From NCBI RefSeq assembly GCF_021204515.1, contig NZ_JAJPZH010000037.1: DNA of 63,539 nucleotides, one strand, 5' to 3'. The notes below the pieces were generated by a model. The model saw nothing but the letters and a program-made list of their open reading frames with translations. It had not been told where the DNA came from and did no database searches. Made by a program: the position numbers and the translations under genes. This document shows, piece after piece, positions 2,532 through 29,086 of the stretch (position 1 is the first letter of the stretch; each line of letters begins with the position of its first letter). This DNA is from Alistipes sp. (GTDB lineage Bacteria; Bacteroidota; Bacteroidia; Bacteroidales; Rikenellaceae).

Positions 2532-2561
2532 AAAAAATCCCCGCACAAAGCCGTGCGGGGA
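2532..2561 (-). terminator. intrinsic terminator closing the lipid biosynthesis operon
   Basis: Stem tccccgcac/gtgcgggga with 6-nt loop, followed on the minus strand by T6, ~20 nt past the stop at 2584. Confidence 0.75.
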
Positions 2562-2583: not shown

Positions 2584-3156
2584 CTATTTGGTCAGGTATC
2601 TTCCCTGTTTTTTGAGGGCGTTGTAAACCGAGCCTGCCCAATAGTTGCGCAGTCCGAAGCCCTTGGGCTTGCCGCTCATGTCCATTTGGGTAATTATCTC
2701 GTGTGTCGCGGGATCGAACAGCACGGCGACGTAGTAGCCCATACCGTTGCCCTTGTCGAGCGTCGTGGCGACCAGCACCAGTCCTTTGTTGCCCGAGCCG
2801 TTGTCGTAGCGGGCGACGATCTGCGGAAGCTGCGTCTGCCAGTCGATCGCGGCGCTGCGGGGCGTGAACTGCTCCGCGGCCAGTGCGCCGAGCGATTCGG
2901 TGGCCTGCCCGACGCCGGTCGAGAGGATGTCGATGCCGGTGAACCCGGCCACGTCGTATTTCTTCGGTTCGCTCAGGAAGAGCTTGTTAATGGCCTCGAA
3001 CGCCTTGATGAAGGCGCCCGGCTCCTCGTCGGCGCCCTTGACGTCTACGCAGCTGTAATCCACGCCGTAAAAATCGGCTGCGATCTTCTCTTTTCCCTTC
3101 TGCGCGTAGCCGCTGACGGCGACGAGGCACAATGCTATGGCCAGTAACTTTTTCAT
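2584..3156 (-). CDS. exported hypothetical protein, last gene of the lipid cluster
   Basis: Clean signal peptide MKKLLAIALCLVAVSGYAQ; 11 nt from upstream gene and followed by a terminator; no recognisable catalytic motif. Confidence 0.8.
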   Translation of the reverse strand: MKKLLAIALCLVAVSGYAQKGKEKIAADFYGVDYSCVDVKGADEEPGAFIKAFEAINKLFLSEPKKYDVAGFTGIDILSTGVGQATESLGALAAEQFTPRSAAIDWQTQLPQIVARYDNGSGNKGLVLVATTLDKGNGMGYYVAVLFDPATHEIITQMDMSGKPKGFGLRNYWAGSVYNALKKQGRYLTK

Positions 3157-10600: not shown

Positions 10601-11470
10601 GAACGAGAGGGTGATGAACGCCACGATGATCAGGATGGCGATGTTGAGCGTCAGCATCATGTCGCGCTTGATCTGACGGGCGTTGTAGGCCGCCACGGCA
10701 GGTCCGCCGTAATAATCCGCCGTGATTCCCGCGGCGGCGTATTCGGCGTTCAGCCCCTTCAGCACCAACTCGATCCGTTCGATCAGCCGGTCGCCGACGC
10801 CCGTGTCGCCGCTCTGGTAGTGCGGCGACAGGAAGACCAGCAGCGTGGTCATGTCCTTCGAAAAGAGATAGTCGTCGCAGAGCGTATAGTTGCCCCCGAT
10901 GTTCAGCTCCTGCAGCTTGTCCAGCGCGCCGAACGACAGCCCCAGCGGATCGTCGTAGATATATTCGTCGATGAATCCCCCGACGGGCGACAGCAGGCGG
11001 CGGTAGTTGCCCTCCATCGCCTGCGCGATGCCCCGCGGGGTGACGAGCGTGTCCATGCGGGCGTAATCCGCTTCCGAAAGCAGCAGCGGCAGGTTGCCCT
11101 GCAGGAACGACCGCATGCCGTCCGCCAGTTCACTGCCGAAGGTCGCTTCGACTTCGGCATAACGCCTGAAAAGCGTGTCGGCGTTGAGCCGCGCCGCCAG
11201 CGAATCGGCGCAGGCTATCATCTGGTCGGTCTTGCCGGCCGCATCCTCGCCGGCGTTTATCATCACGGCGATCTTGTCCTTGATCTTCAAGTTCGAGAAC
11301 GCCGCGGCAGCCTTCCGCTCCCCGTCGGGGAAGAATCCGGTGATGTTCTCGTTGAACCGCAGTTGCAGCGCTGCCGCACCCATCGCCACGACCAGCGCTC
11401 CCAGCAACGCATAGAGCAGTGCGCGGCGGGATTCGAAGAAGTCGTACAGGGCAATGAAGAACTTATTCAT
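7628..11470 (-). CDS. MMPL transporter / lysophospholipid acyltransferase / class I SAM methyltransferase fusion
   Basis: Two RND-like TM blocks (GIALSYSIH, GIGDDFSIF), PlsC motifs NHQSFID and FPEGTRS, C-terminal VVDLGCGYG. Confidence 0.9.
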   Translation of the reverse strand: MNKFFIALYDFFESRRALLYALLGALVVAMGAAALQLRFNENITGFFPDGERKAAAAFSNLKIKDKIAVMINAGEDAAGKTDQMIACADSLAARLNADTLFRRYAEVEATFGSELADGMRSFLQGNLPLLLSEADYARMDTLVTPRGIAQAMEGNYRRLLSPVGGFIDEYIYDDPLGLSFGALDKLQELNIGGNYTLCDDYLFSKDMTTLLVFLSPHYQSGDTGVGDRLIERIELVLKGLNAEYAAAGITADYYGGPAVAAYNARQIKRDMMLTLNIAILIIVAFITLSFRNKFAVLLALIPVALGALFALALMSLTCHTISSIAVGAGTVVMGIALSYSIHILCHANHCHDPRQIIRDLAYPLTIGSITTIGAFAGLLFTDSQLLRDFGLFASLTLVGTTLFSLVLLPHLIRKENRGGGSAVLERVERLTGMRPDRNRPLVAAILLLTFICLFFFNRIGFDSDMMHLNYDPPRLAAAQERLSRLTNEEGERSKVLFITTADTPGEAVASYLRMGRRLDSLEQAGKIDSHAGITSFVVDSAEQQRRLERWRRFWTPQRREAVRAGIREAEKRYGFAEGAFDGALTLAGKEYGMLDYSSAAAREVFREWIDGQEKSPIFLSHVTLADSCKHEVYAAFSATDDIVVADRAFYAGKMARSVNRNFYLILSISSILVTAALFLCYGRIELTLMSLLPMAVGWVIILGLMAMLGIEFNIVTIILSTFIFGIGDDFSIFIMDGLLSEYKTGRRMLDTHKTAIFFSAFTVVVGLGALIFARHPALHSLALISLFGIVAVVLVSYTVQPVLFRMLVSSQTEKGGAPYTLGSLINTLYAFGLFVTGCQLLQALIFTLWPLPMARRRKQRIVQWSIHHMTRGFLRAMVTTKTIRLNDAGETFAEPAVVIANHQSFIDILVLLSICPKAVMVTNGWVWRSPVFGRIVRYLGFYHAADGYEHLAPALAQKVAEGYSVIVFPEGTRSADGKIKRFHKGAFYLAAELGLDILPICLYGNGMISSKRQPIYIKHGLVVSRILPRTACGDPADYSAQAKSACRQMRREYRKLYETYNRPCNPYFRDMLIKSYTYKGPVLEWYMRVKIRLEKCYTLFDRIVPREGTVVDLGCGYGPLSYMLAMLSDRRRIVGMDYDAEKIETARHSFLRRPETEFVHADLRTAELPEADAFLLLDVLHYMQPEEQRGLIARCAARLKTGGRIVIRDGDAGKTERHKTTALTEVWSTKIVGFNKTDGELHFTSTPELQQTARRLGLEIHAAYRDARTSNTVYILTRPE

Positions 11471-12620
11471 GGCGGGGCGTGCGTTTACAGAAGACGAGCA
11501 GGGCGTAGCTGACCGCCGCGGCCGCGACCGCGCATACGGCGGCCATGACGAAACTGCCCACGACGTACTGGAACATGTCGGCGGCGGCCCTTTCGAGCGT
11601 GATCTCCGACAGCGACAGCGGCATTCCGCGCCGCAGTACCTGCGCGCCGGTCCAGTAGCTGCCGTAGAGGATGAAGGGGATCATCGGCGGGATGCTGATG
11701 TTCGAACTGAGGATCGCCACGGCCTTGTTGAGCCGTGTGAAATGGGCCGTAACCCCCGCCGCGATCATTTGGTAGCCCCACAGCGGGGCGATGCCGAAGA
11801 AGATCCCCAGCCCGATCGAGGCGGCCAGCTGCGGATTCGAATCCCGCGAACGGGTGATGTTGTCCGCCACGAAACGGCGGATATTCTCTTTGGTGAGCGA
11901 CCGCAGGAACCGCCACGGATAGTAGAACAGCAGTGCCCCCAGCACGAGGAACGTGTTGAGGATGCTGATGCGCGTGAAGTCCTTGCCCGGCCGGAAGTGC
12001 GTCACGCGTTCGCTCTTTTCGGGGTAGAAGACATCGACGGGGATGTTGCGCACGGCGATTCCCCGCCATGCGGCCCGCACCAGCACTTCGACTTCGAATT
12101 CGTAGCGGCGCGTCAGGAACCGCATGCCCTTCATCCGCCGTACGGGATAGAGCCTGAATCCCGACTGGGTGTCGTCGAGCCGGATGCCGGTCTCGACGCG
12201 GAACCAGAAGTTCGAGAATCTGTTGGCGAAGGTGTTCTTGCCCGGCATGTTGTCCGAGCGGAGGTTCCGGGCGCCGACCAGCAGTGCGTCGGGCGTCTTT
12301 TCGATCTCTTCGACGAACTTCGGGATGTCCGACGCGAAGTGCTGTCCGTCCGAGTCGATCGTTATCATGTAGCGGTAGCCGTGTTCGCCCGCATGGCGCA
12401 GCGCCCGGCGTATGGCGTACCCCTTGCCGCGGTTCGGGGCGTAGGAGATCGTCTCGACGCCCTCGGCGGCCAGTATCCGGGCCGTCGAATCGGTCGAGCC
12501 GTCGTTTACGACCAGCACGTGCGCGCAGTAGCGGCGCACGTCGGCGATCACGCGGGCGACGGTTTTTTCGTTGTTGTAGGTCGGGATCACCGCCAGTATG
12601 TCGTTCCGGTCGTTCGTCAT
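11463..12620 (-). CDS. GT2 glycosyltransferase with C-terminal DUF2062-like membrane domain
   Basis: VIPTYNNE, VNDGSTD, NRGKG, TIDSDGQH, DTQSGFRLY; start trimmed to MTNDRND (ATGA overlap). Confidence 0.88.
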   Translation of the reverse strand: MTNDRNDILAVIPTYNNEKTVARVIADVRRYCAHVLVVNDGSTDSTARILAAEGVETISYAPNRGKGYAIRRALRHAGEHGYRYMITIDSDGQHFASDIPKFVEEIEKTPDALLVGARNLRSDNMPGKNTFANRFSNFWFRVETGIRLDDTQSGFRLYPVRRMKGMRFLTRRYEFEVEVLVRAAWRGIAVRNIPVDVFYPEKSERVTHFRPGKDFTRISILNTFLVLGALLFYYPWRFLRSLTKENIRRFVADNITRSRDSNPQLAASIGLGIFFGIAPLWGYQMIAAGVTAHFTRLNKAVAILSSNISIPPMIPFILYGSYWTGAQVLRRGMPLSLSEITLERAAADMFQYVVGSFVMAAVCAVAAAAVSYALLVFCKRTPRHE

Positions 12621-12985
12621 GGTTCGGGGACGGCGGTCGCTTTGAGTTTGAGTGCCGTTTTTTCGTTGTTTGTGACGACGCAGGTCACTTTCTTCGCCGC
12701 CGTGCCGTCGTCGGCGAGGCGGATGTCTATGTCGAGCAGAGTGTCCGCCTGCGGGACGATCATGCCGAGGAACTTGCATTCGCGGATCGCCGTGAAGCGG
12801 TGCCTGCGTCCCGTGCCGCGCTCCAGACACTCCCGGACGATCTGCAGCGTGCAGACGCCCGGCAGCACGGGGTTGCCGGGGAAGTGCCCTGCGTAGACCG
12901 GATGCGCCGCATTGAGCCGGACCCGGAAGGCAAGGCGGCCGTCTGCCGAGAGGTAGTTGTCTATGTCGCTGTACAGTTTCTGCAT
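12617..12985 (-). CDS. FabA/FabZ-like 3-hydroxyacyl-ACP dehydratase (ApeI-like)
   Basis: HPVYAGHFPGNPVLPGV hotdog dehydratase motif. Confidence 0.85.
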   Translation of the reverse strand: MQKLYSDIDNYLSADGRLAFRVRLNAAHPVYAGHFPGNPVLPGVCTLQIVRECLERGTGRRHRFTAIRECKFLGMIVPQADTLLDIDIRLADDGTAAKKVTCVVTNNEKTALKLKATAVPEP

Positions 12986-13003: not shown

Positions 13004-13618
13004 TCAGGGATTGAATTTCGCAGGATCGACCGCGCGGTTGAATTGCTTGTTGCGGAATTCGTAGACCGAATGTCCGCCCTCGGTCTCGTTCAGTTCCATC
13101 CGGTCGAGCGTCATGTTCTCCATCTCGAAGCGGAGCGTGATCGAGTCGATGTATTTGCGGGCGCGGCGTGACAGGGGTACCATCCGTACGGTCCCCGCGC
13201 CCTCCGTTTCGTCGTAGCCGATCTGCCACCCCTCGCCGAACTGCGAGAGGTCGCCCGTCATGCTGGCGCGGATCATCAGCGCGACCTGCTGCAACATGGG
13301 ATTGGCCGAGGTGGCCGTTTCGGTCACCTGCCCGGCGGTCCTGAGGATGATGCGGTCGTCGCGGATGATGACCTTGTCGCCCGCAGGCTCGGTGTATTCG
13401 AGCGCCATGGCTTTGGCGTTGTCGTAGTAGAAACGGCCTTTAAGCTCGATTTCGTGCTTCATCCGGCGGACCTGCCGGTGCTGCGTGAAGTCGCACTGAA
13501 TGGTTTTGTTCTCGCGGCTGGCTTGGGCGAGCCGCTCCCGGAACGAGTCGGGCAGCTGTCCCCGGGCCGTCAGCGCCGCCAGCAGTGCGAAGGGGATTAG
13601 CAGGGAGGTTATTTTCAT
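13004..13618 (-). CDS. LolA-like periplasmic lipid/lipoprotein carrier
   Basis: Signal peptide; TIQCDFTQ, GRFYY, LEYTEP and C-terminal DPAKF typical of the LolA fold. Confidence 0.78.
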   Translation of the reverse strand: MKITSLLIPFALLAALTARGQLPDSFRERLAQASRENKTIQCDFTQHRQVRRMKHEIELKGRFYYDNAKAMALEYTEPAGDKVIIRDDRIILRTAGQVTETATSANPMLQQVALMIRASMTGDLSQFGEGWQIGYDETEGAGTVRMVPLSRRARKYIDSITLRFEMENMTLDRMELNETEGGHSVYEFRNKQFNRAVDPAKFNP

Positions 13619-14301
13619 GGTTTTTCGATTTTAAACAGTTCGCATACGGTCGCCGTTCCGTAGCCGCGCCGCTTCAGGTCGTCGAGAACCAGCCTTAGCA
13701 GGCGATCCGCGCCGGGACGGTCGTCGTGCAGCAGGATCACCTTGCCGTCGCCCAGCCGGCGGGCGATACGCTCCGCCACGGCTTCGCGGCTGCGGCGCAG
13801 GAGCGTGTCGAACGAGCGGACGCTCCACCCGATGCAGCGGCTCTGCGTCCGCTTCACGGCCCGCGCCACCATCGGGTTGGTGACTCCGAACGGCGGCCGG
13901 AAAAGGTGCGTCTCCACGCCGGCGGTTCGCCGGAGCGACTCCCTGCACCGCAGGATGTCGGCCGTCATCGCCCGGCTGCTCCGCATCGGGAACCCGGCGG
14001 CGTGATCCCAAGTGTGTATGCCCGTGTCGTGCCCTTCGGCGGCGATGCGGCGCACCAGTTCCGGATGCCGCTCGGCTTTTTCCCCGATCAGGAAAAAAGT
14101 CGCCCGTACGCCCCGTTCCCGGAGCAGGTCCAGCACGCGGGGCGTTATCTCCGGGTCCGGTCCGTCGTCGAACGTCAGTGCGACGACCCGTCCCGCGGCC
14201 CTATTGCGGCACAGCGTGCGGACATACGCCCCCAGCCGTATCTGGTAGGAGCAGTAGAACAGGACGAATCCCGCGGCGATTATGACGGCGGCTACATACA
14301 T
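13615..14301 (-). CDS. polysaccharide deacetylase (CE4/NodB domain), membrane anchored
   Basis: ALTFDDGP, ATFFLIG, HTWDH, LFRPPFG, ILLHD; start trimmed to MYVAAVII. Confidence 0.88.
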   Translation of the reverse strand: MYVAAVIIAAGFVLFYCSYQIRLGAYVRTLCRNRAAGRVVALTFDDGPDPEITPRVLDLLRERGVRATFFLIGEKAERHPELVRRIAAEGHDTGIHTWDHAAGFPMRSSRAMTADILRCRESLRRTAGVETHLFRPPFGVTNPMVARAVKRTQSRCIGWSVRSFDTLLRRSREAVAERIARRLGDGKVILLHDDRPGADRLLRLVLDDLKRRGYGTATVCELFKIEKP

Positions 14302-15152
14302 GTTAGTTCCATGGCCGATTCGGTGCGGCCCGAAAAGTCGTTGTAAAGCGTGATCTTGCGCCCGGCGTTCTCCGCGACCGCCTGCCGGAATACCTCGGCG
14401 ATCGCTGTAAAGTGCGGCTTGACGCCGGTTTGCGAAGCCCGTATCGCCCGGCCTTCGGACGCTTCCGCGCCGGCTTGCCCGATGCAGGCGTTTTCGTCTC
14501 CGGATGCCTTTCCGCAGATGCCTTCGGTATGGTTCTTTTCCCCGCCGTCTGCCGCCGGGGTTCCGGCCGGGATGCGGATTCCCGTGATCGCGGCGACCGA
14601 ACAGTCGAACCGCTCGGCCGTCAGCACGAAGAATACCGACGATTCGCCCCACATCCCCTCCCGTGCGACGCGGAGCCGCTGCAGCACTTTTTCGACCGAG
14701 GGCGTCGTCTCGTCGAATGCGCCGACCAGCACGGCCCGCGACCAGCCCGCGCCGATGCGCAGTGCGGCGTCCGTAAGCGCGTTCTCGAAACTCATCCAGC
14801 GGTGGGCGTAGGTGGTGTTGTAACAGTGCAGTCCGCGCAGCAGGGCGATCTGCGCGCCGACCGTGTTGAAGGTCGACTGGATGAACGGCGTGGGGTTGAG
14901 CATCGTCTCGTCGCCTGCGATCAGCCCGTCGAGGAATTTCTCGCTGTCGGCGATGCACCCCAGCCCCGTTGCGGTGATTATCGCGTCGATCGGCGCACGC
15001 ATGCCGAATTCCAGCAGCGATTCGATGCCCGCGGCCACGCCCGATTTCACGACACGGCTCATCCGCCGCCGCAGATTCATCTCGGGGATCAGGACCTTGA
15101 TGTCGCTGCGCAGCTCCGCGCCCGATGTTATGCAATTGACGTATACCTTCAT
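14292..15152 (-). CDS. beta-ketoacyl synthase chain-length-factor-like protein (non-catalytic KS partner)
   Basis: LRRRMSR, TATGLGC, PTPFIQSTFNT, NTTY; lacks KS His motifs; ATGA overlap with upstream KS. Confidence 0.8.
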   Translation of the reverse strand: MKVYVNCITSGAELRSDIKVLIPEMNLRRRMSRVVKSGVAAGIESLLEFGMRAPIDAIITATGLGCIADSEKFLDGLIAGDETMLNPTPFIQSTFNTVGAQIALLRGLHCYNTTYAHRWMSFENALTDAALRIGAGWSRAVLVGAFDETTPSVEKVLQRLRVAREGMWGESSVFFVLTAERFDCSVAAITGIRIPAGTPAADGGEKNHTEGICGKASGDENACIGQAGAEASEGRAIRASQTGVKPHFTAIAEVFRQAVAENAGRKITLYNDFSGRTESAMELTCM

Positions 15153-16312
15153 TTTGCGAATATCAGAGTGGAACAGTTTCCGCCGAACCCGAACGAATTG
15201 GACAGCACCGAATTTACGGCTGCGGATTCCGTCTCCGCGACGGGCCGCAGCCCCAGCTCCGGAATCGGCTCCGCGAATCCGGGATTGCCGTAGCGCAGTC
15301 CGTGCCCGATGGCCAGCGCTGACAGCACGGCTTCGATGCCGCCGGCCGCGGCCAGCGCGTGCCCGGTGAAGCCCTTCGTCGAACTGAACGGCGGCACCTG
15401 CTCGCCGAACAGCCGCCGCAGGGCGGTGCCTTCGGTCAGGTCGTTGTTCGGCGTCGCCGTGCCGTGGGCGTTGATGTAGTCCACGCGCTCCAGCCCGCTC
15501 CGGGCCAGCGCTTCGGCCATGGCGCGGTACGCCCCCTCGCCCGTCTCGGACGAAGCGGTCTGGTGGTGGGCGTCGTTGGCGTTGGCATACCCCGCAAGGC
15601 GGCAGTAGGAGCGCATGCCCGGCGCTTCGCGCGCAAGGACGACATATCCCGCCCCTTCGCCCAGATTCAGCCCTGCGCGCGTGGCGTCGAACGGGCGGCA
15701 CCGCTCCCGGTCGAGAATCGAGAGCGAGTTGAATCCGTTGAGCGTGAAGCGGCACAGCGCGTCGGTGCCTCCGGCCACCACGTAGTCGGCCATGTCGTTT
15801 TCGAGCAGCAGCGCGCCGGTGATGACGGCGTTCGCGGCCGACGAGCAGGCTGTGCTGACGGTCGCCGTGTAACCCGTGATGCCGCAGTACTCCGCGATCC
15901 GGCGGGTGCTGTCGGCGCAGTCGTGCCCCGCCACTGAGCGCAGGCGTCCTCTGCCGTTGTCCGACCTGAAGGCGCGGTAGAAATTCTCCGTGAGGTTCAT
16001 GCCGCCGACCGAGGTCCCCGAAACGAGTGCCACGCGCGCCGCGGCGGGAATCGCCGCATCGGCCACGGCCTGCGCCGCGGCGATCATCCCCAGCAGGGCC
16101 GTGCGCGAAGGGGTCTCGCGCGCCGGGATGCCGAGCAGTTCGCCGAGCGCCCGGTTGTCGTGCCGGACCTCGCCGACGGGCACGTCGACGGCCGAACGGA
16201 AAAGCGTCAGCTTCCCGATCCCGCTGCGTCCGGCCCGCAGGGCCGCCAGCGTCTCCCCGGCCCCGTTGCCGAGTGCCGAGATGATCCCTATGCCCCGGAC
16301 GGCTATGTTCAT
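15149..16312 (-). CDS. beta-ketoacyl-ACP synthase (Cys-His-His type)
   Basis: STACSSA, NAHGTAT, GHALAAAG, NSFGFGG. Confidence 0.92.
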   Translation of the reverse strand: MNIAVRGIGIISALGNGAGETLAALRAGRSGIGKLTLFRSAVDVPVGEVRHDNRALGELLGIPARETPSRTALLGMIAAAQAVADAAIPAAARVALVSGTSVGGMNLTENFYRAFRSDNGRGRLRSVAGHDCADSTRRIAEYCGITGYTATVSTACSSAANAVITGALLLENDMADYVVAGGTDALCRFTLNGFNSLSILDRERCRPFDATRAGLNLGEGAGYVVLAREAPGMRSYCRLAGYANANDAHHQTASSETGEGAYRAMAEALARSGLERVDYINAHGTATPNNDLTEGTALRRLFGEQVPPFSSTKGFTGHALAAAGGIEAVLSALAIGHGLRYGNPGFAEPIPELGLRPVAETESAAVNSVLSNSFGFGGNCSTLIFAK

Positions 16313-16563
16313 TTGCGGTTTTTACGGATATAGTCGGCCAGCGTGGCGACCGAGTGGAATATCGGTTTGGCTTCGGCCGGGTTGGCCAGCCGGATGCCGT
16401 AGTGTTTTTCGAGCAGGAGCGTGATTTCGAGGGCGTCGATCGAATCCAGTCCGAGTCCTTCGCCGAACAGCGGCGCGTCGGTGGCGATCTCTTCGGCGGT
16501 GATCTCCTCCAGATTCAGCGCTTCGATAATCTGCTGTTTGAGTTGCAGTTCCAGATTTTCCAT
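16309..16563 (-). CDS. acyl carrier protein
   Basis: 84 aa, acidic, GLGLDSIDALE phosphopantetheine site. Confidence 0.93.
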   Translation of the reverse strand: MENLELQLKQQIIEALNLEEITAEEIATDAPLFGEGLGLDSIDALEITLLLEKHYGIRLANPAEAKPIFHSVATLADYIRKNRK

Positions 16564-16568: not shown

Positions 16569-18533
16569 CTATTCGAGTTTTTCGGTTAATGTCAGTTCAC
16601 AGTCGTACTCCCCGCCGCAGAGTTCGCACCAGCCCCACACGACGGCGTCCATGCGTCCTTGGGCGATCAGTCCTTCGGCGTATTTCCGGATAAAGTTACG
16701 GTTTTTGTCCGGGAACGCAAAAAAAGTGCTCTCGCCTTTCAGCCCGTGCTTGATCGCGATCTGGCCCAGCATGATGTTCGGGAGCGTGTAGACGAACACC
16801 GCCGGGGAGGCTCCGCTCCCGTCGGCGGCGTCGATGACGGCCTGATGGCGCATGTCGCTGTCGAGCGACGCGCTGCGGTTGGCCAGCACCACGCCGATCC
16901 GCTCGGCCGGGCAGTCGGGCCGTCGCCCGGCCAGCAGTTCGCACGATGCGACGTAGGCCAGCTTGCAGAGGTCGTCCATCTTCGAAAACTTCATGTTAGG
17001 GTCTGCCAGCGCGCGGTATCTCTCGCGGATGAAGACGCCGAACGGCACCTCCGGATGCCGCGTTATGGTCACGTGCGCCGTGTCGCGGGCGGCGCGTATC
17101 CGTCCGGCCTCGCTGCAGCCTGCCTGCCCGGCGTTTGTTATGACGTTGTTTCCGTTCGCTGCGGCGCACTCTTTCTGTCCGACGTTCGCTGCGGCGCTGC
17201 TTTCGTCCGCTCCGGTGAATCCGGGTTGTCCGCCGGCTGTTTCCTGCCTGCGTTTGTTCTGAGCGTCGTCCCGGTCGGTTTCGGCGCCGTTTGTCCCGTC
17301 CTGACGGGCGGGATTTTCTCCGTCGCAGTATCGTCCGCCGAAAACGTCGCTTCGCTCCGCCGCGGCATTCTCGTCCGTGCTGCCCGTCTCGTCCGTGCCG
17401 TATGCGTTCCGCCACGTCCCGCGCCGGAATACCGCCGCGGCGTTGCAGCCGCCGAATCCCGACGCCGTTTTCAGCGCGGCGTCCGTCCGGATAGTGCGGT
17501 GTTCCGCGCTTATGTTCAGCGGATAGGGCACCCCGCACTCCGCATAGCCTTTGACGCCGAAGACGCTCCCTTCGGCCAGTCCGTGCACCGTGACGATGCT
17601 TTCGATGACGCCCGAAGCGCCGAGCGTATGCCCGAAATAGGGTTTCAGCGAGTTGCAGGGCGTGCCGCACAGTCCTGCGAGATGCAGCGCCCGGCTCTCC
17701 ATCTCGTCGTTGTAGAGCGTCGCCGTGCCGTGGGGATTGACCATGCCGATCTCTGCGGCGCCGAGCGACGCTTCGCGGAGCGCCGCGCCGATTGCGAACG
17801 CGAGTCCGTCGCCCGTGCGCGACGGAGCCGATATGTGGTTCGCGTCGTTGGAGATGCCGCCTCCCGCCACGGTGACGCCCGTGGCCGAAAGCTCTCGATC
17901 GGTCGTGAGCAGCACCGCGCCGCCGGCTTCGCCCAGCGTCAGCCCGTCGCGCGCCGCGTCGTAGGGGCGGCAGAGCACGGGGCTTACCGATTTGAAGGCG
18001 TTGAATCCGCTGACGATGAAATCGCACAGCAGGTCGAATCCCGCGACGAAGACATGGTCGTACTCGCCGCTGCGGATCAGCCGCGACGCGACGACGATGG
18101 CCGAGAGGCCCGAAATGCAGGCGTTCGAGATCACCAGCGGCCGGTTCGCCGCCCCGAAATGCCTTCCGACGATCTCCGCCGTGTCGTTCAGATCGCATTT
18201 CGCCGGATCGCCGTTCAGCAGGCCGATATTGCCTTTGGTCGTGGAGAGAATGATGAGCGTCCGTTCGTCCGCGGGCGACACGCCCGACCGGGCGATCACC
18301 TCGCCCAGCGTCAGCAGCGCCAGTCGTTCCGCGGGCGTGTATTCCGTCAGTCTCCGCTCCGCCGCCAGCTGCGCGAACCGTTCCCTGTCGATCCGGCAGA
18401 CGGGCGTGCCGTCGTGCCATGCCGAGAGATTCGTCCTCCCGGCGCGCACGGCCTCCATATTCTCCCGCGTGCCGAATCCGAGCGCTGACAGGATGCTGTC
18501 GGGTCCCCACCAGACCGCTACTTCACGTCCCAT
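16569..18533 (-). CDS. beta-ketoacyl-ACP synthase fused via a long linker to a CLF-like domain
   Basis: SNACISG, NPHGTAT, GHTLGASG, SGFGG; ~115 aa low-complexity linker; then FSKMDDLCK and SPAVFVYTLPN; start trimmed to MGREVAV. Confidence 0.85.
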   Translation of the reverse strand: MGREVAVWWGPDSILSALGFGTRENMEAVRAGRTNLSAWHDGTPVCRIDRERFAQLAAERRLTEYTPAERLALLTLGEVIARSGVSPADERTLIILSTTKGNIGLLNGDPAKCDLNDTAEIVGRHFGAANRPLVISNACISGLSAIVVASRLIRSGEYDHVFVAGFDLLCDFIVSGFNAFKSVSPVLCRPYDAARDGLTLGEAGGAVLLTTDRELSATGVTVAGGGISNDANHISAPSRTGDGLAFAIGAALREASLGAAEIGMVNPHGTATLYNDEMESRALHLAGLCGTPCNSLKPYFGHTLGASGVIESIVTVHGLAEGSVFGVKGYAECGVPYPLNISAEHRTIRTDAALKTASGFGGCNAAAVFRRGTWRNAYGTDETGSTDENAAAERSDVFGGRYCDGENPARQDGTNGAETDRDDAQNKRRQETAGGQPGFTGADESSAAANVGQKECAAANGNNVITNAGQAGCSEAGRIRAARDTAHVTITRHPEVPFGVFIRERYRALADPNMKFSKMDDLCKLAYVASCELLAGRRPDCPAERIGVVLANRSASLDSDMRHQAVIDAADGSGASPAVFVYTLPNIMLGQIAIKHGLKGESTFFAFPDKNRNFIRKYAEGLIAQGRMDAVVWGWCELCGGEYDCELTLTEKLE

Positions 18534-18961
18534 CTCTCCTTCCATTTGCGGTAGAACTCCGGCGCGAGCAGCTGCAGCTCGCCGCGGGCGTCGAGAAACA
18601 CCTGCGTCGAGCTTCCCTCGGCGACGATTTCGCCGTCGGTGGCGCTGCGGATCGTGTATTCGAAACATATCTTCGCCGCTTCGGTGGCGATATAGCGGGT
18701 CTCGACCACGGCCGTGTCGTTTACGCGCAGCGGCTTTTTGTATTGCAGCTGCAGTTCGACGATCGGCGCGGTGTATCCGCTGGCATGGATGTCCATGTAG
18801 CCCAATCCCGCGAATTCGCGCCCGAAGGCCTCGCGTCCGTCCTCGAAATAGCGCACGTACTCGCCGTGCCATACGATCTGCATCGAGTCCACCTCGCTGA
18901 ACCTTACGCGCAGCGATGTCTTGCTGACAAGGCTCGCCTCGGCTGTTTTTCTGCGTACCAT
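18518..18961 (-). CDS. acyl-CoA/ACP thioesterase (4HBT/YbgC family)
   Basis: VRFSEVDSMQIVWHGEYVRYFE; start trimmed to MVRRKT. Confidence 0.88.
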   Translation of the reverse strand: MVRRKTAEASLVSKTSLRVRFSEVDSMQIVWHGEYVRYFEDGREAFGREFAGLGYMDIHASGYTAPIVELQLQYKKPLRVNDTAVVETRYIATEAAKICFEYTIRSATDGEIVAEGSSTQVFLDARGELQLLAPEFYRKWKERWDVK

Positions 18962-19401
18962 CACTCTTCCATGTATATTTTCATCCGGCACTCGGCGACG
19001 GGCTTTCCGCCGCATTCGGTCCGTGCCGAAAGCAGGGTTACGTTCATTACCGCCTGTTCGACGGCGATCGTCGTGACGAGCCGGCTGCCGACCGGGGGCA
19101 GCGCATGGATTTTCAGGTCGTTCACGGCTCCGATATACCCCAGCCGCACCTTTTCGCCGCGGCTGCGGTCCATATAGCCTGCGCGCAGGGCGGCCGACTG
19201 GGCGATATGCTCGATCAGGCCGCACTCGCTGAGCGCGCCCTCTTCGATGAAGATGTTGTCTTCGCGTACGGTCAGCCCGCTGCGGGCGCATCCGTCTTCG
19301 CCGATGCCGTAGAAGGCATCCGCCATGACGATCGGCGGCCGCTGCGGAATGTATTCCACTATTTCGTCCGCCGCAATCAGGGCTTTCTCAGGTACTCCCA
19401 T
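18961..19401 (-). CDS. hotdog-fold dehydratase partner (ApeP/FabZ-like)
   Basis: IPQRPPIVMAD, LIEHIAQSAA, GYIGAV. Confidence 0.8.
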   Translation of the reverse strand: MGVPEKALIAADEIVEYIPQRPPIVMADAFYGIGEDGCARSGLTVREDNIFIEEGALSECGLIEHIAQSAALRAGYMDRSRGEKVRLGYIGAVNDLKIHALPPVGSRLVTTIAVEQAVMNVTLLSARTECGGKPVAECRMKIYMEE

Positions 19402-20780
19402 AACGGTCCTTTTTTATTTCGTTTCAGCCGCAGCGTATCGACCAGTGCGCTCTGCTCGTCCTCGGGGAAAACCCACGCCTTGCCCGTCGCGGCGGCCGCG
19501 CTGCGGACCTCTTCCAAGTCGAAGTCCGGGGCGATGTAATAGGCCGGCGCCAGCAGGTCGTCGTTCGGGCCGACGACGCCTTCGCGTGCGGCCAGTTCAG
19601 CCAGCCGGGTGTGCGGATAGATGCGCATGCCCGCATAGGGGAACATGACGGTATATTCCAGCCGGCGCGAATTTTCGATCGTTTCGTGCACATTCCTCCG
19701 CGTGTCGCCGTACCCGCCCAGAATCAGGAAGTGGGCGTAGTAGACGCCGTTGTCCAGCGCCAGCCGGCTGGCCCGCACGACGTCGCCGAACGTAAAGCGT
19801 TTGCCGTAGGCTTCCAGTGTCCGGTCGCAGAACGACTCGGTGCCGAATTCGATGTGGGTCAGGCCCGAAGCCCTGAAGAGCCGCATCTGCTCGGCGTCGA
19901 TGCCCCGTGGCGAGAAGTAGGCGCCCCACTCGACGTTCGTCCCGCGCCGGATGAGCGTTTCGGCCAGCCGGACGTTGTATTCGGGACAAATGTTGAACAC
20001 CGAGTCGGTGAAGAACAGGTAGTTTATGCCGTAATCGCGCTTGGCGCGGAGGATGTTTTCTGCGATGATTTCGGGGTCCATCGTGCGCACGCACCGCCCG
20101 TCGATATGGGGATACGAACAGTAGATGCACTCGTAGGGGCAGCCCCGCTTGGTCTGGATGTTGAGCATGCCGCTCCGCTTCCAGTAATATCCGGTCAGCT
20201 CCGGCTCGAACTCCACTTCGATCGCCGGCAGGTAGCTGCGCCGTCCGTTTTCGGTGCATCCGTTTCCTGCGGGTCCGTTTTCGGTGCACCTGTTTCCCGT
20301 ACACCCGTCACGGGTGTAGACCGCCGGAATGCCGCTTCCGGTTTCGCCCCGCTCCAAGGCTCCGATCAGCTCCGCCAGCGGTCCTTCGCCCTCGCCGTGG
20401 ATGCCGTAATCGGCCCCCAGTTCCCGCATGAACGCCTGCGGATAGATCGAGAATCCCGCCCCGCCGATAATCACGGGTGCGTCGCTGGCCGCGCGTATGA
20501 CGTTGATCAGCGCCTTGTACTCCGGCAGGAATCCCCGCCGGTCGAGCGAATTGGCGCCGTCCACGTTGCGCAGCGACACCCCGATATAGCGGGGCGCGAG
20601 CGTGCCGATGCGTTCGGCCAGCTCTTCGTCCGTGAGTAGGTTGCAGTCGGCCGTATCGACACGTATCCCGCTTATCGTGCGCTCGAGGTAGGTTTTCAGG
20701 TAGGAAATTCCGAGCGGATAAACGGGGTAGGGCGACGTGTGGCGGTTTGCCGAAATGAGTAATATGCTACATGCGCTCAC
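19377..20780 (-). CDS. lipid-biosynthesis B12-binding radical SAM protein
   Basis: N-terminal PYPVYPLG..GVSLRNVD..IIGGAGFS cobalamin-binding domain; RGCPYECIYC CxxxCxxC; FTDSVFN; GTG start inferred from GTGA overlap. Confidence 0.88.
   Translation of the reverse strand: MSACSILLISANRHTSPYPVYPLGISYLKTYLERTISGIRVDTADCNLLTDEELAERIGTLAPRYIGVSLRNVDGANSLDRRGFLPEYKALINVIRAASDAPVIIGGAGFSIYPQAFMRELGADYGIHGEGEGPLAELIGALERGETGSGIPAVYTRDGCTGNRCTENGPAGNGCTENGRRSYLPAIEVEFEPELTGYYWKRSGMLNIQTKRGCPYECIYCSYPHIDGRCVRTMDPEIIAENILRAKRDYGINYLFFTDSVFNICPEYNVRLAETLIRRGTNVEWGAYFSPRGIDAEQMRLFRASGLTHIEFGTESFCDRTLEAYGKRFTFGDVVRASRLALDNGVYYAHFLILGGYGDTRRNVHETIENSRRLEYTVMFPYAGMRIYPHTRLAELAAREGVVGPNDDLLAPAYYIAPDFDLEEVRSAAAATGKAWVFPEDEQSALVDTLRLKRNKKGPLWEYLRKP
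20245..20304. repeat. four imperfect 15-bp tandem units in the radical SAM interdomain linker
   Basis: ccgttttcggtgcat / ccgtttcctgcgggt / ccgttttcggtgcac / ctgtttcccgtacac, in the stretch encoding GCTGNRCTENGPAGNGCTENG. Confidence 0.75.
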
Positions 20781-21658
20781 GACCAGAAACGATAGAAATT
20801 GAACCATTGCTGCGGATAGCGCCTTACCACGGCTTCGAGCGAGCGGACGTAGCTTCCGAGCACGGCGTTCGGGGTTTTGCCGTCCGGCGCTTCCGGGATG
20901 TCGAAGATGAAACGGTAACGCCTGCCGCGTTCGCGCATCGCATAGTAAAAGACCGCCGGCGCCCGGAATTTCTCGGCGACGACGAACGGTCCTGCCGGGA
21001 AGAGGGCCTCCCGGCCCATGAAAGTCATCGGCACCGTGGCGCCGCCTTCGACGAAGCGGTCGCCCTGAAAGCAGACGTACTCCCTGCGGTCGAGCACCTC
21101 CTTGATCCGCAGGATCGACTCGATGCCCCCTTCGTTCACCGGAATCACCTTGTAGCCCTCCTGCCTGCAGTGCTTGTCCATGACATTTTTGATCTGCCGG
21201 TATTCGGCGTCGTACATTACGAGGTGCATCCTGCGGGCGTAGTCGCCGAAGAATCCGGCTCCCGTGCCCCAGCAGCCGACGTGCGCGCCGATGATCACCG
21301 CGCCGCGCCCGCCGTCGAGCAGGCGCAGGAAAGCGTCGTAATTCTCGAATTCGAACTTGTACCGGTTGGCCATGCCGCTGCCGATGGCGACCCGGTCGAT
21401 GATGGTCTGTCCGAGCGCGTAATAGTGGGCATAGAGTTTGACCGCCGAACGCAAGACGCCGTAACGGAGTATGCGGCGGTTATAGAACCAGACGGCCCGC
21501 GTGGCGCGTGGCGCGAAAGGGATGAAATAGACGACTACCAGCGAGAGGAAAGCGTATGCGGCGCGTATTCCGAACACCCTCATCAGAAAGATGAAGAAAC
21601 TGTAGCCGAAACCTCCGCCGCGCGAGCGTCCGCTCCACCGTTTGTCGTTATTTGTCAT
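20777..21658 (-). CDS. LpxL/LpxP-family lipid acyltransferase
   Basis: WSGRSRGG N-terminus, IGAHVGCW, CFQGDR, YPQQWFNFY. Confidence 0.85.
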   Translation of the reverse strand: MTNNDKRWSGRSRGGGFGYSFFIFLMRVFGIRAAYAFLSLVVVYFIPFAPRATRAVWFYNRRILRYGVLRSAVKLYAHYYALGQTIIDRVAIGSGMANRYKFEFENYDAFLRLLDGGRGAVIIGAHVGCWGTGAGFFGDYARRMHLVMYDAEYRQIKNVMDKHCRQEGYKVIPVNEGGIESILRIKEVLDRREYVCFQGDRFVEGGATVPMTFMGREALFPAGPFVVAEKFRAPAVFYYAMRERGRRYRFIFDIPEAPDGKTPNAVLGSYVRSLEAVVRRYPQQWFNFYRFWS

Positions 21659-21896
21659 TGGTCCGGCTGATAATCAGGTCGTAGAAGTCCTGAAAGGTCT
21701 TCAGCTCCTTGAAGTCGGGACCCGTGAGCGTCACGCCGAAATTCTTATCGACGAGCACCACGACGTCCACCAGATCGAGGCTGTCGAGGTCGAGCGTTTC
21801 GAGCAGCGGCGCATCGGGGGTGATGACCTCCTGCTCCACTTCGAATTCGTCGGCCAAAACGGTATTGATCTTTTCGATAAGTTCCTGTTGTGTCAT
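21648..21896 (-). CDS. acyl carrier protein
   Basis: 82 aa, acidic, LDLDSLDLVD; start trimmed to MTQQEL. Confidence 0.92.
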   Translation of the reverse strand: MTQQELIEKINTVLADEFEVEQEVITPDAPLLETLDLDSLDLVDVVVLVDKNFGVTLTGPDFKELKTFQDFYDLIISRTNDK

Positions 21897-21910: not shown

Positions 21911-23134
21911 TTATTTGCATTTCTTGATAATGAGGGTCGAGTTGGTTCCGCCGAATCCGAACGAGTTCGACAGAAAGCGGTCGAAGGCGAGGTCCACCTT
22001 GCGGGCGGGAATGTTGAGCTTCGAGGTGGCTTCGTCTCCCTGCGCGAAATTGATGTTCGGGGCGATGAATCCGTGCTCCATCATCAGCATCGAGTAGACG
22101 ATTTCGCTGGCTCCCGCCATCCACATCTCGTGGCCGGTCATCGACTTGGTCGAGGCGACGTAGGGCCTGTTCGCGCCGAACACCTCGTCGATGGCCAGCG
22201 CTTCGTTGTAGTCGCCCAGCGGCGTCGAAGTGGCGTGGGCGTTGACGTAGGGGATCTCTTCGGGCCGCATGCCCGCGTCCGCCAGACAGCGCAGCAGCGA
22301 GCGGCGCGGCCCGTCCACGTTCGGCACGGAAATGTGCTCGCCGTTCGACGAGAATCCGTATCCGGCCACTTCGCCCAGTATCGCCGCGCCCCGGCGCACC
22401 GCCGAGTCGTAGCTTTCGAGAATCACGGTCGCCGCGCCTCCGCTCGGAACCAGCCCGTCGCGGTCCCTGTCGAAGGGGCGCGATGCCGCCGCGGGGTCCG
22501 ATTCGCGTTTCGAGAAGGCCCCCAGTCCGTCGAAACTGCCGACCGAATAGAGGTTCACCTCCTGCGCTCCGCCGCATACGATGCGCTCCTGCAGTCCCTG
22601 CCGGATCATCAGATACCCCATGCCGATCGCGTGCGAGCCGCTGGCGCAGGCAGCCGAGAGGGTGAGGTTGACGCCCCGCAGGTTGAAGATCACCGAGAGG
22701 TTCATCGTGACGGTCGAATTCATCGACTGGAAGATGTTTCCCGAACCGACCATCGCCGTATTCCGCTTGGCGCGGATGATGTCGATACCCTCGATCACCG
22801 GGGCCGCGCTGCTGTCGTTGCCGTAGATGATGCCGACCTCGTTGGCCGCCAGAAACGCTTCGTCCATTCCCGCATTGCGCATCGCTTCGGCCGTGGCCAT
22901 GTAGGCGAATTCGCCCTGTTGGGGCAGGCAGAGCCGCTTGCGGCGGTCGAGCGCCCCTTTCAGTTCGGGACGCTTGACGATGCCCGTCAGCGCCGATATG
23001 TATCCCAGCTCCCTGCGCGCCGGGTCCAGTCCGATGCCCGAACGCCCTTCGCGGAGCGATTCGGTCACTTCGCCGAGGCTGGTGCCGATCGAGGACCAGA
23101 TGCCCAGTCCGGTGATGACTACTCTGTTTTCCAT
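21911..23134 (-). CDS. beta-ketoacyl-ACP synthase (FabB/FabF-like)
   Basis: SAACASG, NAHATST, GHEMWMAG, NSFGFGG. Confidence 0.92.
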   Translation of the reverse strand: MENRVVITGLGIWSSIGTSLGEVTESLREGRSGIGLDPARRELGYISALTGIVKRPELKGALDRRKRLCLPQQGEFAYMATAEAMRNAGMDEAFLAANEVGIIYGNDSSAAPVIEGIDIIRAKRNTAMVGSGNIFQSMNSTVTMNLSVIFNLRGVNLTLSAACASGSHAIGMGYLMIRQGLQERIVCGGAQEVNLYSVGSFDGLGAFSKRESDPAAASRPFDRDRDGLVPSGGAATVILESYDSAVRRGAAILGEVAGYGFSSNGEHISVPNVDGPRRSLLRCLADAGMRPEEIPYVNAHATSTPLGDYNEALAIDEVFGANRPYVASTKSMTGHEMWMAGASEIVYSMLMMEHGFIAPNINFAQGDEATSKLNIPARKVDLAFDRFLSNSFGFGGTNSTLIIKKCK

Positions 23135-23138: not shown

Positions 23139-23879
23139 TCAGGTATATAATCCTCCGTTGATCGATATTACTTCCCCCGTGATGTAGGAGGCCTTGTCCG
23201 AGATAAGGAACATCGCCAGATCGGCGACCTCCGCCGCCTCGCAGAAGCGTCCGGCGGGTATCTGTTTCCTGAGTTCCGCTTCGTCGAGGTCCGCGGTCAT
23301 GTCCGTACGTACGAATCCCGGCGCGATGGCGTTTACCGTCACGCCTTTCTTGGCCACCTCCTGCGCCAGCGCCTTCGTCGCCGCGATCACGCCGCCTTTG
23401 GCCGCCGAATAGTTGGTCTGTCCGGGCAGTCCCTTGATTCCCGAGAGCGAGACGATATTGACGATGCGGCCGAAACGTTTGACCAGCATGTCCTTCAGCA
23501 GCGGGCGCGTGACGTTGTAGAATCCGCCTAGACCGGTATCCACGACCGAGTGCCACTGCTGCGGCTCCATCCACATCATCAGAGAGTCGCTGCGGATGCC
23601 CGCATTGTTCACCACCACCTCGATAACGGCTCCCCGGTGGCGCTCCTGCCATGCGGCGATCGCCGCCGCGGTCTCTTCGCCCGCGGCCACGTCGAACCGC
23701 AGGGTCTCTCCGTCGCCGCCCGCGGCGCGGACGCCTTCGAGCGTCCTTCGGGCTTCGTCGGCGTTCGAGCGGTAGTTGATGAGCACGTAGTAGCCGTGCC
23801 GGGCCAGCTTGAGACATATTTCGCGGCCTATGCCCCGGCTTCCGCCGGTGACGAGCGCATATTTTGTCGGTTCGGTCAT
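23139..23879 (-). CDS. fabG: 3-oxoacyl-ACP reductase
   Basis: TGGSRGIG, NNAGI, YSAAK, VNAIAPG; start trimmed to MTEPTK (ATGA overlap). Confidence 0.9.
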   Translation of the reverse strand: MTEPTKYALVTGGSRGIGREICLKLARHGYYVLINYRSNADEARRTLEGVRAAGGDGETLRFDVAAGEETAAAIAAWQERHRGAVIEVVVNNAGIRSDSLMMWMEPQQWHSVVDTGLGGFYNVTRPLLKDMLVKRFGRIVNIVSLSGIKGLPGQTNYSAAKGGVIAATKALAQEVAKKGVTVNAIAPGFVRTDMTADLDEAELRKQIPAGRFCEAAEVADLAMFLISDKASYITGEVISINGGLYT

Positions 23880-25390
23880 GCTTGCTCTTTCAGGAAGTTT
23901 TCGATGGCGGCGATTTCCCGGTATTTGGGCGTATCGTCGGCGAATTTCGGCACGATGCGGCGGATGTCGTCGTACAGCCTCCGGGTCTGGGACGACAGCT
24001 CTCCGGCGCACTCCAGACAATCGGCGGCCTGCACCAGCGCCAGCATCTCGATCGACAGCACCTGATAGCCGTTTTCGATCACCTGACGCGTCAGCATCGC
24101 GGCGTTGGTGCCCATGCTGACTATATCCTGATTGTCGTTGTTGTTGGGTATCGAGTGCACGTACATCGGATTCGAAAGCGTCTGCGATTCGGCCGTGGTC
24201 GAGGTCGCCGTGAACTGCGCCGCCTGCAGGCCGTAGTTGAGACCCAGCCGTCCGAGGTTCACGAACGGCGGCAGCGTCTCGTTGATACGGTCGTGGAAGA
24301 GGTAATTCAGCTGCCGTTCGGCGAGCATCGTCATCTTCGTGACGGCGATCTTGAGTTTGTCCATCTCCAGCGAAACGTAGTCGCCGTGGAAGTTGCCGCC
24401 GTGGTAGATGGTTCCCGTCGCCGGGTCCACCACCGGATTGTCGTCCACCGAATTGAACTCTTCGACCAGTATCTTCTCCGCATGTTCGAGCGTTTCGAGC
24501 ACCGGACCCAGTATCTGGGGTATGCAGCGCAGCGAATAGTAGGGCTGCACTTTGTGTTTGAAGGTCGGAGCCTCTCCCGTGTCGCCGCTGTAAAGTTCCG
24601 TTTCGCGCTTGCGCAGGCGGCGGCTCGACGCGCATATTTCGCGCATCCGGCGGGCGATTTCGATCTGCCCGGCGTGGAGCTTATAGGCGTTGAGCGCCTC
24701 GGCCATGAAGTCGTCGTACGATTCGACTATCTCGTTGAGCATTACCGAAGCCTTCACGGCCCAGTCCAGCAGGCGGCGGGTCTGGGCGAGGTTCACCAGC
24801 CCGATTCCCGTCATTACGGCCGTGCCGTTGGTCAGCGCCAGTCCGTCGCGGATGCGGAGCCTGAGCGGCGTTATGCCGCACGCCTTCATCGCTTCGGCCG
24901 CGGAGACGGTTTCGCCGTGGAACGAGACTTCCGATTCGCCGATCAGCGCCAGCGCGATGTGCGCCAACTGCACCAAGTCGCCGCTGGCGCCGACGCTGCC
25001 GTGGTGCGGCACGAGCGGATATATTTCGTTGTTGAGGAATCCGGCCAGAATCCGCACCACGTCGGGATGCACGCCCGATTTGGCGTTGAGGAAGGTCTGC
25101 AGGCGCGCAAGCATCGCCGCCCGTACGCAGATGTCGGGCAGCGTTTCGCCCGCGCCGCAGCTGTGCGAACGGATGATGTTGTATTGCAGGCTGTTCAGGT
25201 CGGCGTCGCCGATCCTGTACTGTGCCATGGGGCCGAAACCGGTGTTGATGCCGTATATTACCTTTCCCTGCTCGAAAACTTCGAGAAAACGGTAGCAGGC
25301 CTCGACTTCCCGGAGAGTCGCCTCGCCGACCGGAACTTCTGTCCGATTGAAAATCCAGCCGTTAATGGAGTCCAAGTCCGAATAGTGCAT
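23876..25390 (-). CDS. MIO-dependent aromatic amino acid ammonia-lyase, probably tyrosine ammonia-lyase
   Basis: YGINTGFG, GASGDL (MIO), YSLRC.PQ, HGGNFHG, NQDIVSMG; first gene of the lipid operon. Confidence 0.9.
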   Translation of the reverse strand: MHYSDLDSINGWIFNRTEVPVGEATLREVEACYRFLEVFEQGKVIYGINTGFGPMAQYRIGDADLNSLQYNIIRSHSCGAGETLPDICVRAAMLARLQTFLNAKSGVHPDVVRILAGFLNNEIYPLVPHHGSVGASGDLVQLAHIALALIGESEVSFHGETVSAAEAMKACGITPLRLRIRDGLALTNGTAVMTGIGLVNLAQTRRLLDWAVKASVMLNEIVESYDDFMAEALNAYKLHAGQIEIARRMREICASSRRLRKRETELYSGDTGEAPTFKHKVQPYYSLRCIPQILGPVLETLEHAEKILVEEFNSVDDNPVVDPATGTIYHGGNFHGDYVSLEMDKLKIAVTKMTMLAERQLNYLFHDRINETLPPFVNLGRLGLNYGLQAAQFTATSTTAESQTLSNPMYVHSIPNNNDNQDIVSMGTNAAMLTRQVIENGYQVLSIEMLALVQAADCLECAGELSSQTRRLYDDIRRIVPKFADDTPKYREIAAIENFLKEQA

Positions 25391-25420: not shown

Positions 25421-25513
25421 CAAAAACTATCTCAATAATCCTTTATACGGTCACTTTTTTGTTTGCATTGTCCACTCCGGCTGTGCTCTTCGGACAGGGG
25501 CCGGATCCGCGGC

Positions 25514-25550: not shown

Positions 25551-25573
25551 TGTAACAGAGCGTCGTCCGGACG

Positions 25574-29079: not shown

Positions 29080-29086
29080 GCTGTAA

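Follow-up and report, generated by a model that had tools for sequence, protein, structure and literature searches.

A cobalamin-binding radical SAM protein as the probable head-group methylase of a flexirubin/aryl-polyene gene cluster in Alistipes sp.

We analyzed a stretch of 63,539 nucleotides from Alistipes sp. (family Rikenellaceae, order Bacteroidales; assembly GCF_021204515.1, contig NZ_JAJPZH010000037.1), hereafter the window, which encodes a B12-binding radical S-adenosylmethionine (SAM) protein of the TIGR04072 family. Twenty-two genes in the same orientation, from about 25390 to 2584, form a 23-kb flexirubin/aryl-polyene cluster, and the gene for this protein is the sixth of them. 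Comparison of this cluster with related ones indicates that the protein probably takes the place of the methyltransferase FlxJ/ApeB. The following features, all on the minus strand (-), were recognized in the cluster:

23876..25390 (-): FlxA, tyrosine ammonia-lyase family (start at 25390 or 25423; NF053541, 829.7 bits, cut-off 700)
23139..23879 (-): FlxB, ketoreductase (NF053542, 399.6 bits, cut-off 340)
21911..23134 (-): ketosynthase at the flxC position (Pfam ketosynthase domains)
21648..21896 (-): acyl carrier protein (ACP) 1 (PF00550)
20777..21658 (-): lipid-A-type acyltransferase, upstream neighbour of the radical SAM gene (PF03279)
19377..20780 (-): B12-binding radical SAM protein, TIGR04072 family, predicted aryl-ring C-methyltransferase (467 residues from GTG at 20780)
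20367..20747 (-): cobalamin-binding domain of this protein with G67-x-S69-x-R71, GG106-107 and EG130-131 (Pfam and alignment with TsrM, in which G65-x-T67-x-R69 is equivalent)
20118..20141 (-): intact CxxxCxxC motif of this protein (C214, C218, C221), then Y223 (sequence)
18961..19401 (-): hot-dog dehydratase-like protein, downstream neighbour of the radical SAM gene (weak FabZ matches, E 5.5e-5)
18518..18961 (-): thioesterase (PF13279, PF03061)
16569..18533 (-): ketosynthase fused to a chain-length-factor-like domain (domain search, comparison with related loci)
16309..16563 (-): ACP 2 (domain and family search)
15149..16312 (-): ketosynthase (Pfam)
14292..15152 (-): ketosynthase N-terminal/chain-length-factor-like protein (PF13723)
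13615..14301 (-): polysaccharide deacetylase (PF01522)
13004..13618 (-): LolA2 flexirubin carrier (NF053544, 206.5 bits, cut-off 125)
12617..12985 (-): second dehydratase-like protein, 122 residues (open reading frame; the same-position gene in locus L059 matches a FabA-like Pfam family)
11463..12620 (-): GT2 glycosyltransferase with DUF2062 (Pfam)
7628..11470 (-): MMPL exporter with fused acyltransferase and class I methyltransferase domains (Pfam)
6127..7626 (-): phytoene-dehydrogenase-like flavoprotein (family and Pfam search)
4472..6130 (-): C45-family autoproteolytic acyltransferase (NF040521, 229.7 bits, cut-off 85)
3168..4484 (-): FlxY, aryl-CoA ligase family (NF053551, 688 bits, cut-off 520)
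2584..3156 (-): 190-residue protein without a family match, last gene of the cluster, position kept in relatives (family search, synteny)
2538..2561 (-): terminator-like hairpin with a T run, downstream of the last gene (matched by consensus only, with 0.7 expected by chance)

The radical SAM gene starts either at a GTG (20780), which overlaps the TGA of the upstream acyltransferase gene (GTGA), or, equally possibly, at an in-frame ATG (20807), which gives 476 residues. Its stop codon lies beyond the ATG (19401) of the dehydratase-like gene, an overlap of 25 nucleotides. These overlaps suggest that the gene is translationally coupled to its neighbours. Both the Pfam B12-binding domain (residues 12–138; 56.4 bits, cut-off 32.1) and the Radical_SAM domain (residues 210–369; 73.2 bits, cut-off 29.5) were found above their cut-offs, and C214-x3-C218-x2-C221 was invariant in 45 of 45 aligned orthologues, confirming the cobalamin-binding N-terminal domain and the intact CxxxCxxC motif seen in the first-pass annotation of this DNA. 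The protein is predicted from these motifs to be a cobalamin/[4Fe-4S]/SAM enzyme.

A resemblance to TIGR04072 (rSAM_ladder_B12), which the annotation had noted, held in a hidden Markov model search: the protein scored 397.1 bits against a curated cut-off of 360 and has the architecture of this family, an N-terminal B12-binding domain and a radical SAM domain with CxxxCxxC, in a lipid-biosynthesis context. The next-best models, BzaD TIGR04385 (180.6 bits, cut-off 450) and TsrM TIGR04428 (131.3 bits, cut-off 500), were both below their cut-offs. The family was presumably first described from an island of Kuenenia and Desulfotalea. No reaction was assigned to TIGR04072 in the literature searched. 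Between the two domains lies a low-complexity, repeat-like insert (residues ~162–180, window 20240–20300), which varies in length among close strains, is missing from distant orthologues and has low confidence in the AlphaFold model; the gene for the ketosynthase/chain-length-factor fusion (16569–18533) encodes a similar low-complexity linker.

The cluster combines the FlxA/FlxY aryl starter genes with a type II ketosynthase/ACP core, as flexirubin clusters do, and it also contains the aryl-polyene gene set: ketosynthases/chain-length factors, ACPs, dehydratases, thioesterase, acyltransferase, GT2 glycosyltransferase, LolA and MMPL proteins (compared with the ape gene table, PMC8253772). Its product is predicted from the gene content to be an aryl-polyene lipid. 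FlxJ was not found in the genome of the window (97% complete), and the best matches to darA and darB, the dialkylresorcinol module, had 21–23% identity; the product therefore cannot be a classical flexirubin. The fatty-acid-type gene setting described in the first-pass annotation was thus found, as part of this more specific cluster type. The position of the radical SAM gene between an acyltransferase and a dehydratase was verified for the acyltransferase; the dehydratase is only likely, because the FabZ matches are weak.

The closest named relatives (94% and 86% identity) are Alistipes genomes, in which the gene order is the same. Contigs from four RNA-library runs (two studies), from a relative with ~96% identity, span the cluster, although such contigs cannot show transcription; a flanking control stretch was mostly absent from these runs, perhaps because the relative lacks it. 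The flanks (window 25574–63539 and 95–2302) contain genes for carbohydrate use (aldose epimerase, GH2, sulfatase, GH36). Little of 25500–45000 was covered by the RNA-library contigs of the close relative, a hint that this flank differs among strains.

We analyzed the distribution of the radical SAM gene (counted by TIGR04072) and FlxJ (counted by PF21212) in the FlxA-positive genomes among 401 Bacteroidales. FlxA was present in 102 genomes: 31 had TIGR04072 only, 67 had PF21212/FlxJ only, one had both and three had neither. About 21 of the 102 would be expected to have both if the two genes were independent. The exclusion fits 98 of the 102 genomes; its Fisher p of 1e-21 is overstated because kin are not independent. 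Four genomes with the radical SAM gene and 11 with the methyltransferase were left out of this count, having no FlxA match. In total, 36 of the 401 genomes had TIGR04072 above the cut-off. The first order-wide search scored only four radical SAM candidates per genome, which could hide orthologues; therefore, the 67 FlxJ-only genomes were searched again with a profile of the 45 orthologues and all candidates scored. None of the 67 contained an orthologue (best score 166 bits; three of three positive controls, 734–757 bits), and hidden orthologues in FlxJ genomes were thereby ruled out.

The same pattern was found within the family of the window (151 genomes), of which 16 pass TIGR04072 and 19 pass FlxA. 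Fifteen of these 19 have the radical SAM gene, one has it cut at a contig end, and three are without it. These three carry a class I methyltransferase inside the cluster and are the only PF21212 genomes among the 151; two of the methyltransferases were scanned and gave 588 and 584 bits on the FlxJ model NF053543 (cut-off 560).

For gene order, 97 of 101 other flxA regions were fetched along with family and extra loci, and 88 loci span the acyltransferase to the dehydratase. The slot between these two genes contained the radical SAM gene in 33 loci, FlxJ in 26 and both in none. In a further 18 loci the slot was vacant and FlxJ lay at another place in the locus; in eight it held darAB alone, and in three it was empty, these having FlxJ elsewhere in the genome. 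Some near-identical gene orders differ in the gene in the slot, which, for example, is FlxJ in loci L081, L094 and L107 versus the radical SAM gene in the window, L076 and L082. FlxJ was present in none of 80 metagenome loci of the radical SAM gene, many of them short (41 span FlxC to the dehydratase).

On a quick FlxC tree of 104 clusters, from which loci without FlxC in the fetched stretch were left out, the radical SAM and FlxJ traits each change at least 13 times. Of seven independent, well-supported pairs differing in the radical SAM gene, about six are opposite in FlxJ and none differs the same way (sign test, p ~0.03). The tree is unrooted and is therefore silent on which enzyme came first.

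Several other arrangements were observed in these loci. In one genome (G193, L080:5583-9027) dndC/dndD phosphorothioation genes interrupt the cluster immediately past the acyltransferase, and the radical SAM gene is on another contig; in L021:12280-13680 a group II intron reverse transcriptase is inserted two genes past the radical SAM gene. A TIGR04072 paralogue scoring 280–350 bits occurs in 17 of 401 genomes, of which 15 also carry the main gene and none carries FlxJ (loci L169:8838-10259, L170, L172 and L173; genomes G263, G458, G372, G201 and others). The one copy checked keeps the arginine motif discussed below. In some genomes the paralogue is part of a multi-radical-SAM insert within the cluster; addition of a second methyl is a possible role for it. 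Some FlxJ-type and some radical-SAM-type clusters also encode a second, highly conserved radical-SAM-like protein of ~420 residues with CxxxCxPC, 60–81% identical between Bacteroidales and the Syntrophus phylum and without an NCBIfam match near cut-off; its gene lies close to those for the phytoene-dehydrogenase-like protein and FlxY or immediately precedes TIGR04072 (L063:2-1018 (-) into L064; L140:17713-18990; L101, L108, L112, L129; L270:8421-9683; L271:7123-8364; L274:2498-3757). This protein is absent from the genome of the window.

The function of FlxJ can be approached through its relatives. FlxJ of locus L049 (588 bits on NF053543) shares 44.7% identity, across 98% of its length, with an Escherichia coli protein at the apeB position of an aryl-polyene cluster. 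Its neighbours in the Protein Data Bank (PDB) are 3DP7 and SibL, the latter of which we take to methylate an aromatic carbon beside a phenol. ApeB, the only methyltransferase among the ape genes examined, is described as the likely head-group methylase (PMC8253772). Deletion of apeB in Xenorhabdus is reported to give desmethyl lipids, the parent head being 4-hydroxy-3-methylphenyl (10.1101/2020.12.19.423268), and the ring methyl of flexirubin is reported to derive from methionine, one hydrogen of the ring being lost (PMC3992019). The class I methyltransferase domain of the MMPL-acyltransferase protein (window 7628–8230) is present in most, not all, clusters of both types.

The AlphaFold model of the radical SAM protein has a predicted local distance difference test (pLDDT) value of 90.5. 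TsrM was the best PDB match both by sequence (E 2.9e-32) and by fold (template modelling (TM) score 0.83; 22% identity), followed in fold by OxsB (0.71), TokK (0.66) and CysS (0.64). Most B12 radical SAM enzymes are described as methylating sp3 carbons, and TsrM, CloN6/CouN6 and BzaD as methylases of sp2 carbons (PMC12931638, PMC9204698). The same sources name Arg69, Glu236 and Glu273 as key residues of TsrM: Arg69, on the lower axial face of cobalamin, is tied to methyl-cation transfer, and Glu273 is a fourth ligand of the iron–sulfur cluster, presumed to block radical chemistry. In structurally characterized radical methylases, the lower-axial residue is hydrophobic (PMC12931638, PMC9204698). 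In the sequence alignment, Arg69 corresponds to Arg71 of the window protein and is present in 45 of 45 orthologues.

Taken together, these data indicate that the radical SAM protein probably depends on cobalamin to methylate the hydroxyphenyl head group, the role that FlxJ/ApeB has in related clusters. The methyl would likely be placed on the 4-hydroxyphenyl ring, beside the hydroxyl, of the predicted aryl-polyene lipid. The target would be the aromatic ring and not the chain, because the gene swaps with the FlxJ/ApeB methyltransferase. In the proposed pathway, FlxA would convert tyrosine to 4-coumarate and FlxY would activate it; the ketosynthases, FlxB and the dehydratases would extend the activated coumarate on ACP to a polyene; and the acyltransferase, glycosyltransferase, MMPL and LolA proteins would join the polyene to a lipid anchor and export it. 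On the ring, Arg71 under base-off cobalamin would weaken the Co–methyl bond, as in TsrM, the phenol(ate) would accept the methyl as a cation, and SAM would then re-methylate cob(I)alamin. A plain SAM methyltransferase can replace the radical SAM enzyme presumably because the ortho carbon of a phenol is nucleophilic enough.

The first-pass annotation had proposed radical C-methylation or, less likely, cyclisation on an ACP-bound aryl or polyene chain, making the lipid cobalamin dependent. While its observations were borne out, this interpretation is partly supported. C-methylation is preferred to cyclisation, and an aryl/polyene substrate agrees with the cluster, the comparative data indicating the ring rather than the chain; the radical character is uncertain, since TsrM, the closest structure, methylates by polar chemistry and its arginine is kept but not its glutamate. 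The cobalamin dependence of the lipid is plausible. Eight cobalamin riboswitches were found in the genome of the window (97% complete), and there was no match to CbiC or CobS, which suggests that the host takes B12 up rather than making it.

Several points weigh against head-group methylation in place of FlxJ, or against parts of it. One genome (G523) carries both genes, its FlxJ lying on another contig among unrelated genes and scoring 530 bits, slightly below the cut-off; three of the 102 FlxA genomes have neither, and in one of these (G301) the cluster is cut at a contig end. The tree test comprises only seven well-supported pairs on a quick single-gene tree. Moreover, exclusion shows competition for one step or site and not an identical product. 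The literature searched yielded neither a product of any such anaerobic cluster nor an experimental test of FlxJ itself; no published statement of the swap was found either, most subscription journals being outside the search. BzaD activity is itself described as only predicted (PMC12931638, PMC9204698). The methyltransferase domain fused to the MMPL protein could also methylate the ring. Among loci including the MMPL-acyltransferase gene it is present in 12 of 14 radical SAM loci and 16 of 23 FlxJ loci; since it occurs with both types, it was rejected as the substitute for FlxJ.

The chemistry is a further weak point. TsrM Glu273 is replaced by Val261 (V in 42, I in 2 and L in 1 of the 45 orthologues) and Glu236 by Tyr223 in 45 of 45, a position that is also aromatic in the radical methylase TokK. 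As neither glutamate is kept, the polar mechanism is uncertain. The protein appears TsrM-like on its cobalamin side, which speaks for methyl-cation transfer, but on its cluster side it resembles a conventional radical enzyme; on balance we lean only slightly to the polar over the radical route.

The protein may act at the same ring step and make a product unlike that of FlxJ, for example one with two methyls, with an ethyl built by successive methylations or with the methyl on a different ring carbon. This would explain the exclusion equally well, as two genes competing for one site, and also the retention of a costly B12/Fe–S enzyme; canonical SAM binding is not blocked, there being no equivalent of Glu273, and iterative B12 methylases are described (PMC12931638, PMC9204698). 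We nevertheless consider it unlikely: repeated in-place swaps in otherwise identical operons most simply mean the same job, and by fold the protein resembles TsrM more than it does the iterative enzymes TokK and CysS. A radical methylation unrelated to the ring, with an unactivated carbon of the lipid anchor or the ACP-bound polyene as its target, is rather improbable. The intact CxxxCxxC, Tyr223 at the TokK aromatic position, the missing cluster-blocking glutamate, the sp3 substrates described for most of these enzymes and the location amid chain-building genes all agree with it, but it gives no reason for exclusion with a ring methylase family in 98 of 102 genomes, and Arg71 is invariant, in contrast to the hydrophobic residue of the radical methylases.

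A radical reaction that cyclises the polyene or forms rings on it, comparable to the chemistry proposed for ladderanes, is suggested by the family name and by reviews that propose a B12 radical SAM enzyme for the cyclobutanes of anammox bacteria. It is very improbable given the spread of the family over Bacteroidales and the Syntrophus phylum in aryl-polyene-like or related loci, the syntenic clusters of Desulfotalea, which is reported without ladderanes, and the swap with FlxJ, which it leaves unexplained. The least credible proposal is that the protein replaces the missing DarAB module in building or modifying the polyene anchor. In its favour, darAB is absent from the genome of the window and can fill the same slot, and the radical SAM gene was found in none of 14 genome loci with darA or darB. 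Most FlxJ clusters, however, are without darAB and have no radical SAM gene in its place, and metagenome locus L231 has the radical SAM gene, then a DarA-like gene and DarB (604 bits, cut-off 550), mirroring FlxJ-darA-darB in L141; since L231 has all three, the radical SAM protein does not replace darAB, and this candidate was rejected.

The ladderane link of TIGR04072 goes no further than the family name. For cyclobutane formation in anammox bacteria, a B12 radical SAM enzyme was proposed (PMC13459092, PMC10139942), and in Kuenenia four radical SAM candidates are reported in three clusters (PMC4790861, PMC2649909). A separate cluster (amxACP, amxFabZ), described as restricted to ladderane producers, has its own B12 enzyme (PMC10139942), for the role of which no supporting experiment is reported (PMC10139942, PMC13459092); Desulfotalea has syntenic clusters and is reported to lack ladderanes (PMC2649909). 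TIGR04072 was above the cut-off in 20 of 91 Syntrophus-phylum genomes. Of five loci examined there, one just below the cut-off, two are clearly aryl-polyene-like, with ketosynthase/chain-length factor, ACP, thioesterase, GT2, acyltransferase, LolA and MMPL genes and, in one, a FlxY-like ligase; three are related ketosynthase/ACP or ACP/thioesterase clusters. The arginine motif is kept in four of the five (pattern match). PF21212 was found in none of the 91 genomes, weak evidence of absence, since no control genome scored either. No anammox-named protein was among the best 120 hits of two protein searches, most hits carrying no name, and none was found by name in the metagenome scan or the Atlas. 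We tentatively propose, at somewhat less than even confidence, that TIGR04072 across anaerobes, including the anammox member, is an aryl-polyene head-group methylase and not a ring builder, a TsrM-like phenol methylase without the cluster-blocking glutamate.

The TIGR04072 family and the cluster type were themselves already known. If the proposed function is true, an uncharacterised, widespread B12 radical SAM family would gain a specific reaction, open to testing by exchange of genes or in a gut bacterium that can be cultured; anammox bacteria are reported to have no genetics (PMC10139942). One gene could be removed from the ladderane candidate list. Should the wider reading of the family hold as well, several clusters long listed as ladderane candidates would be pigment-lipid clusters, and gut Alistipes would depend on scavenged vitamin B12 for completing an outer-membrane pigment. 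A phenol methylase would join the few B12 methylases of sp2 carbons, and its mixture of TsrM-like and TokK-like residues bears on what decides between polar and radical chemistry. The operon slot is also a clear-cut example of repeated mutual displacement between a B12 enzyme and an ordinary SAM methyltransferase.

Compared with known systems, the window shares FlxA, FlxB, LolA2 and FlxY (all above cut-offs) with the flexirubin clusters of Chitinophaga pinensis and Flavobacterium johnsoniae, as well as ketosynthase, ACP, dehydratase, deacetylase, GT2 and exporter genes; unlike them, it has neither darAB nor FlxJ in its genome. Candidate ladderane clusters of Kuenenia (kuste2802-2805, 3335-3352 and 3603-3608) are reported with similar gene types (PMC2649909, PMC4790861); those listed include ketosynthase paralogues with altered active sites, phenylacetyl-CoA ligase, a phytoene-desaturase-like protein, deacetylase, glycosyltransferase and B12 radical SAM protein. 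TIGR04072 members of the sulfate-reducer phylum are ~35–39% identical to the Bacteroidales branch that holds the window protein.

Among characterized or predicted enzymes, BzaD, a predicted benzimidazole C-methylase, was the second-best model and is described as probably methylating an aromatic carbon next to an oxygen-bearing one; it differs in belonging to B12 lower-ligand synthesis, and the window protein scores below its cut-off. TsrM (tryptophan C2-methyltransferase, PDB 6WTE/6WTF) has in common the G-x-S/T-x-R cobalamin motif with the lower-axial arginine, while the window protein is ~100 residues shorter, scores 131 against 500 and has phenol, not indole, as its predicted substrate. The class I methyltransferases FlxJ (NF053543) and ApeB share the operon slot with the radical SAM gene and have a complementary distribution, but they have an unrelated fold and neither a cobalamin nor an Fe–S cofactor; the exchange is thus displacement by a non-homologous enzyme.

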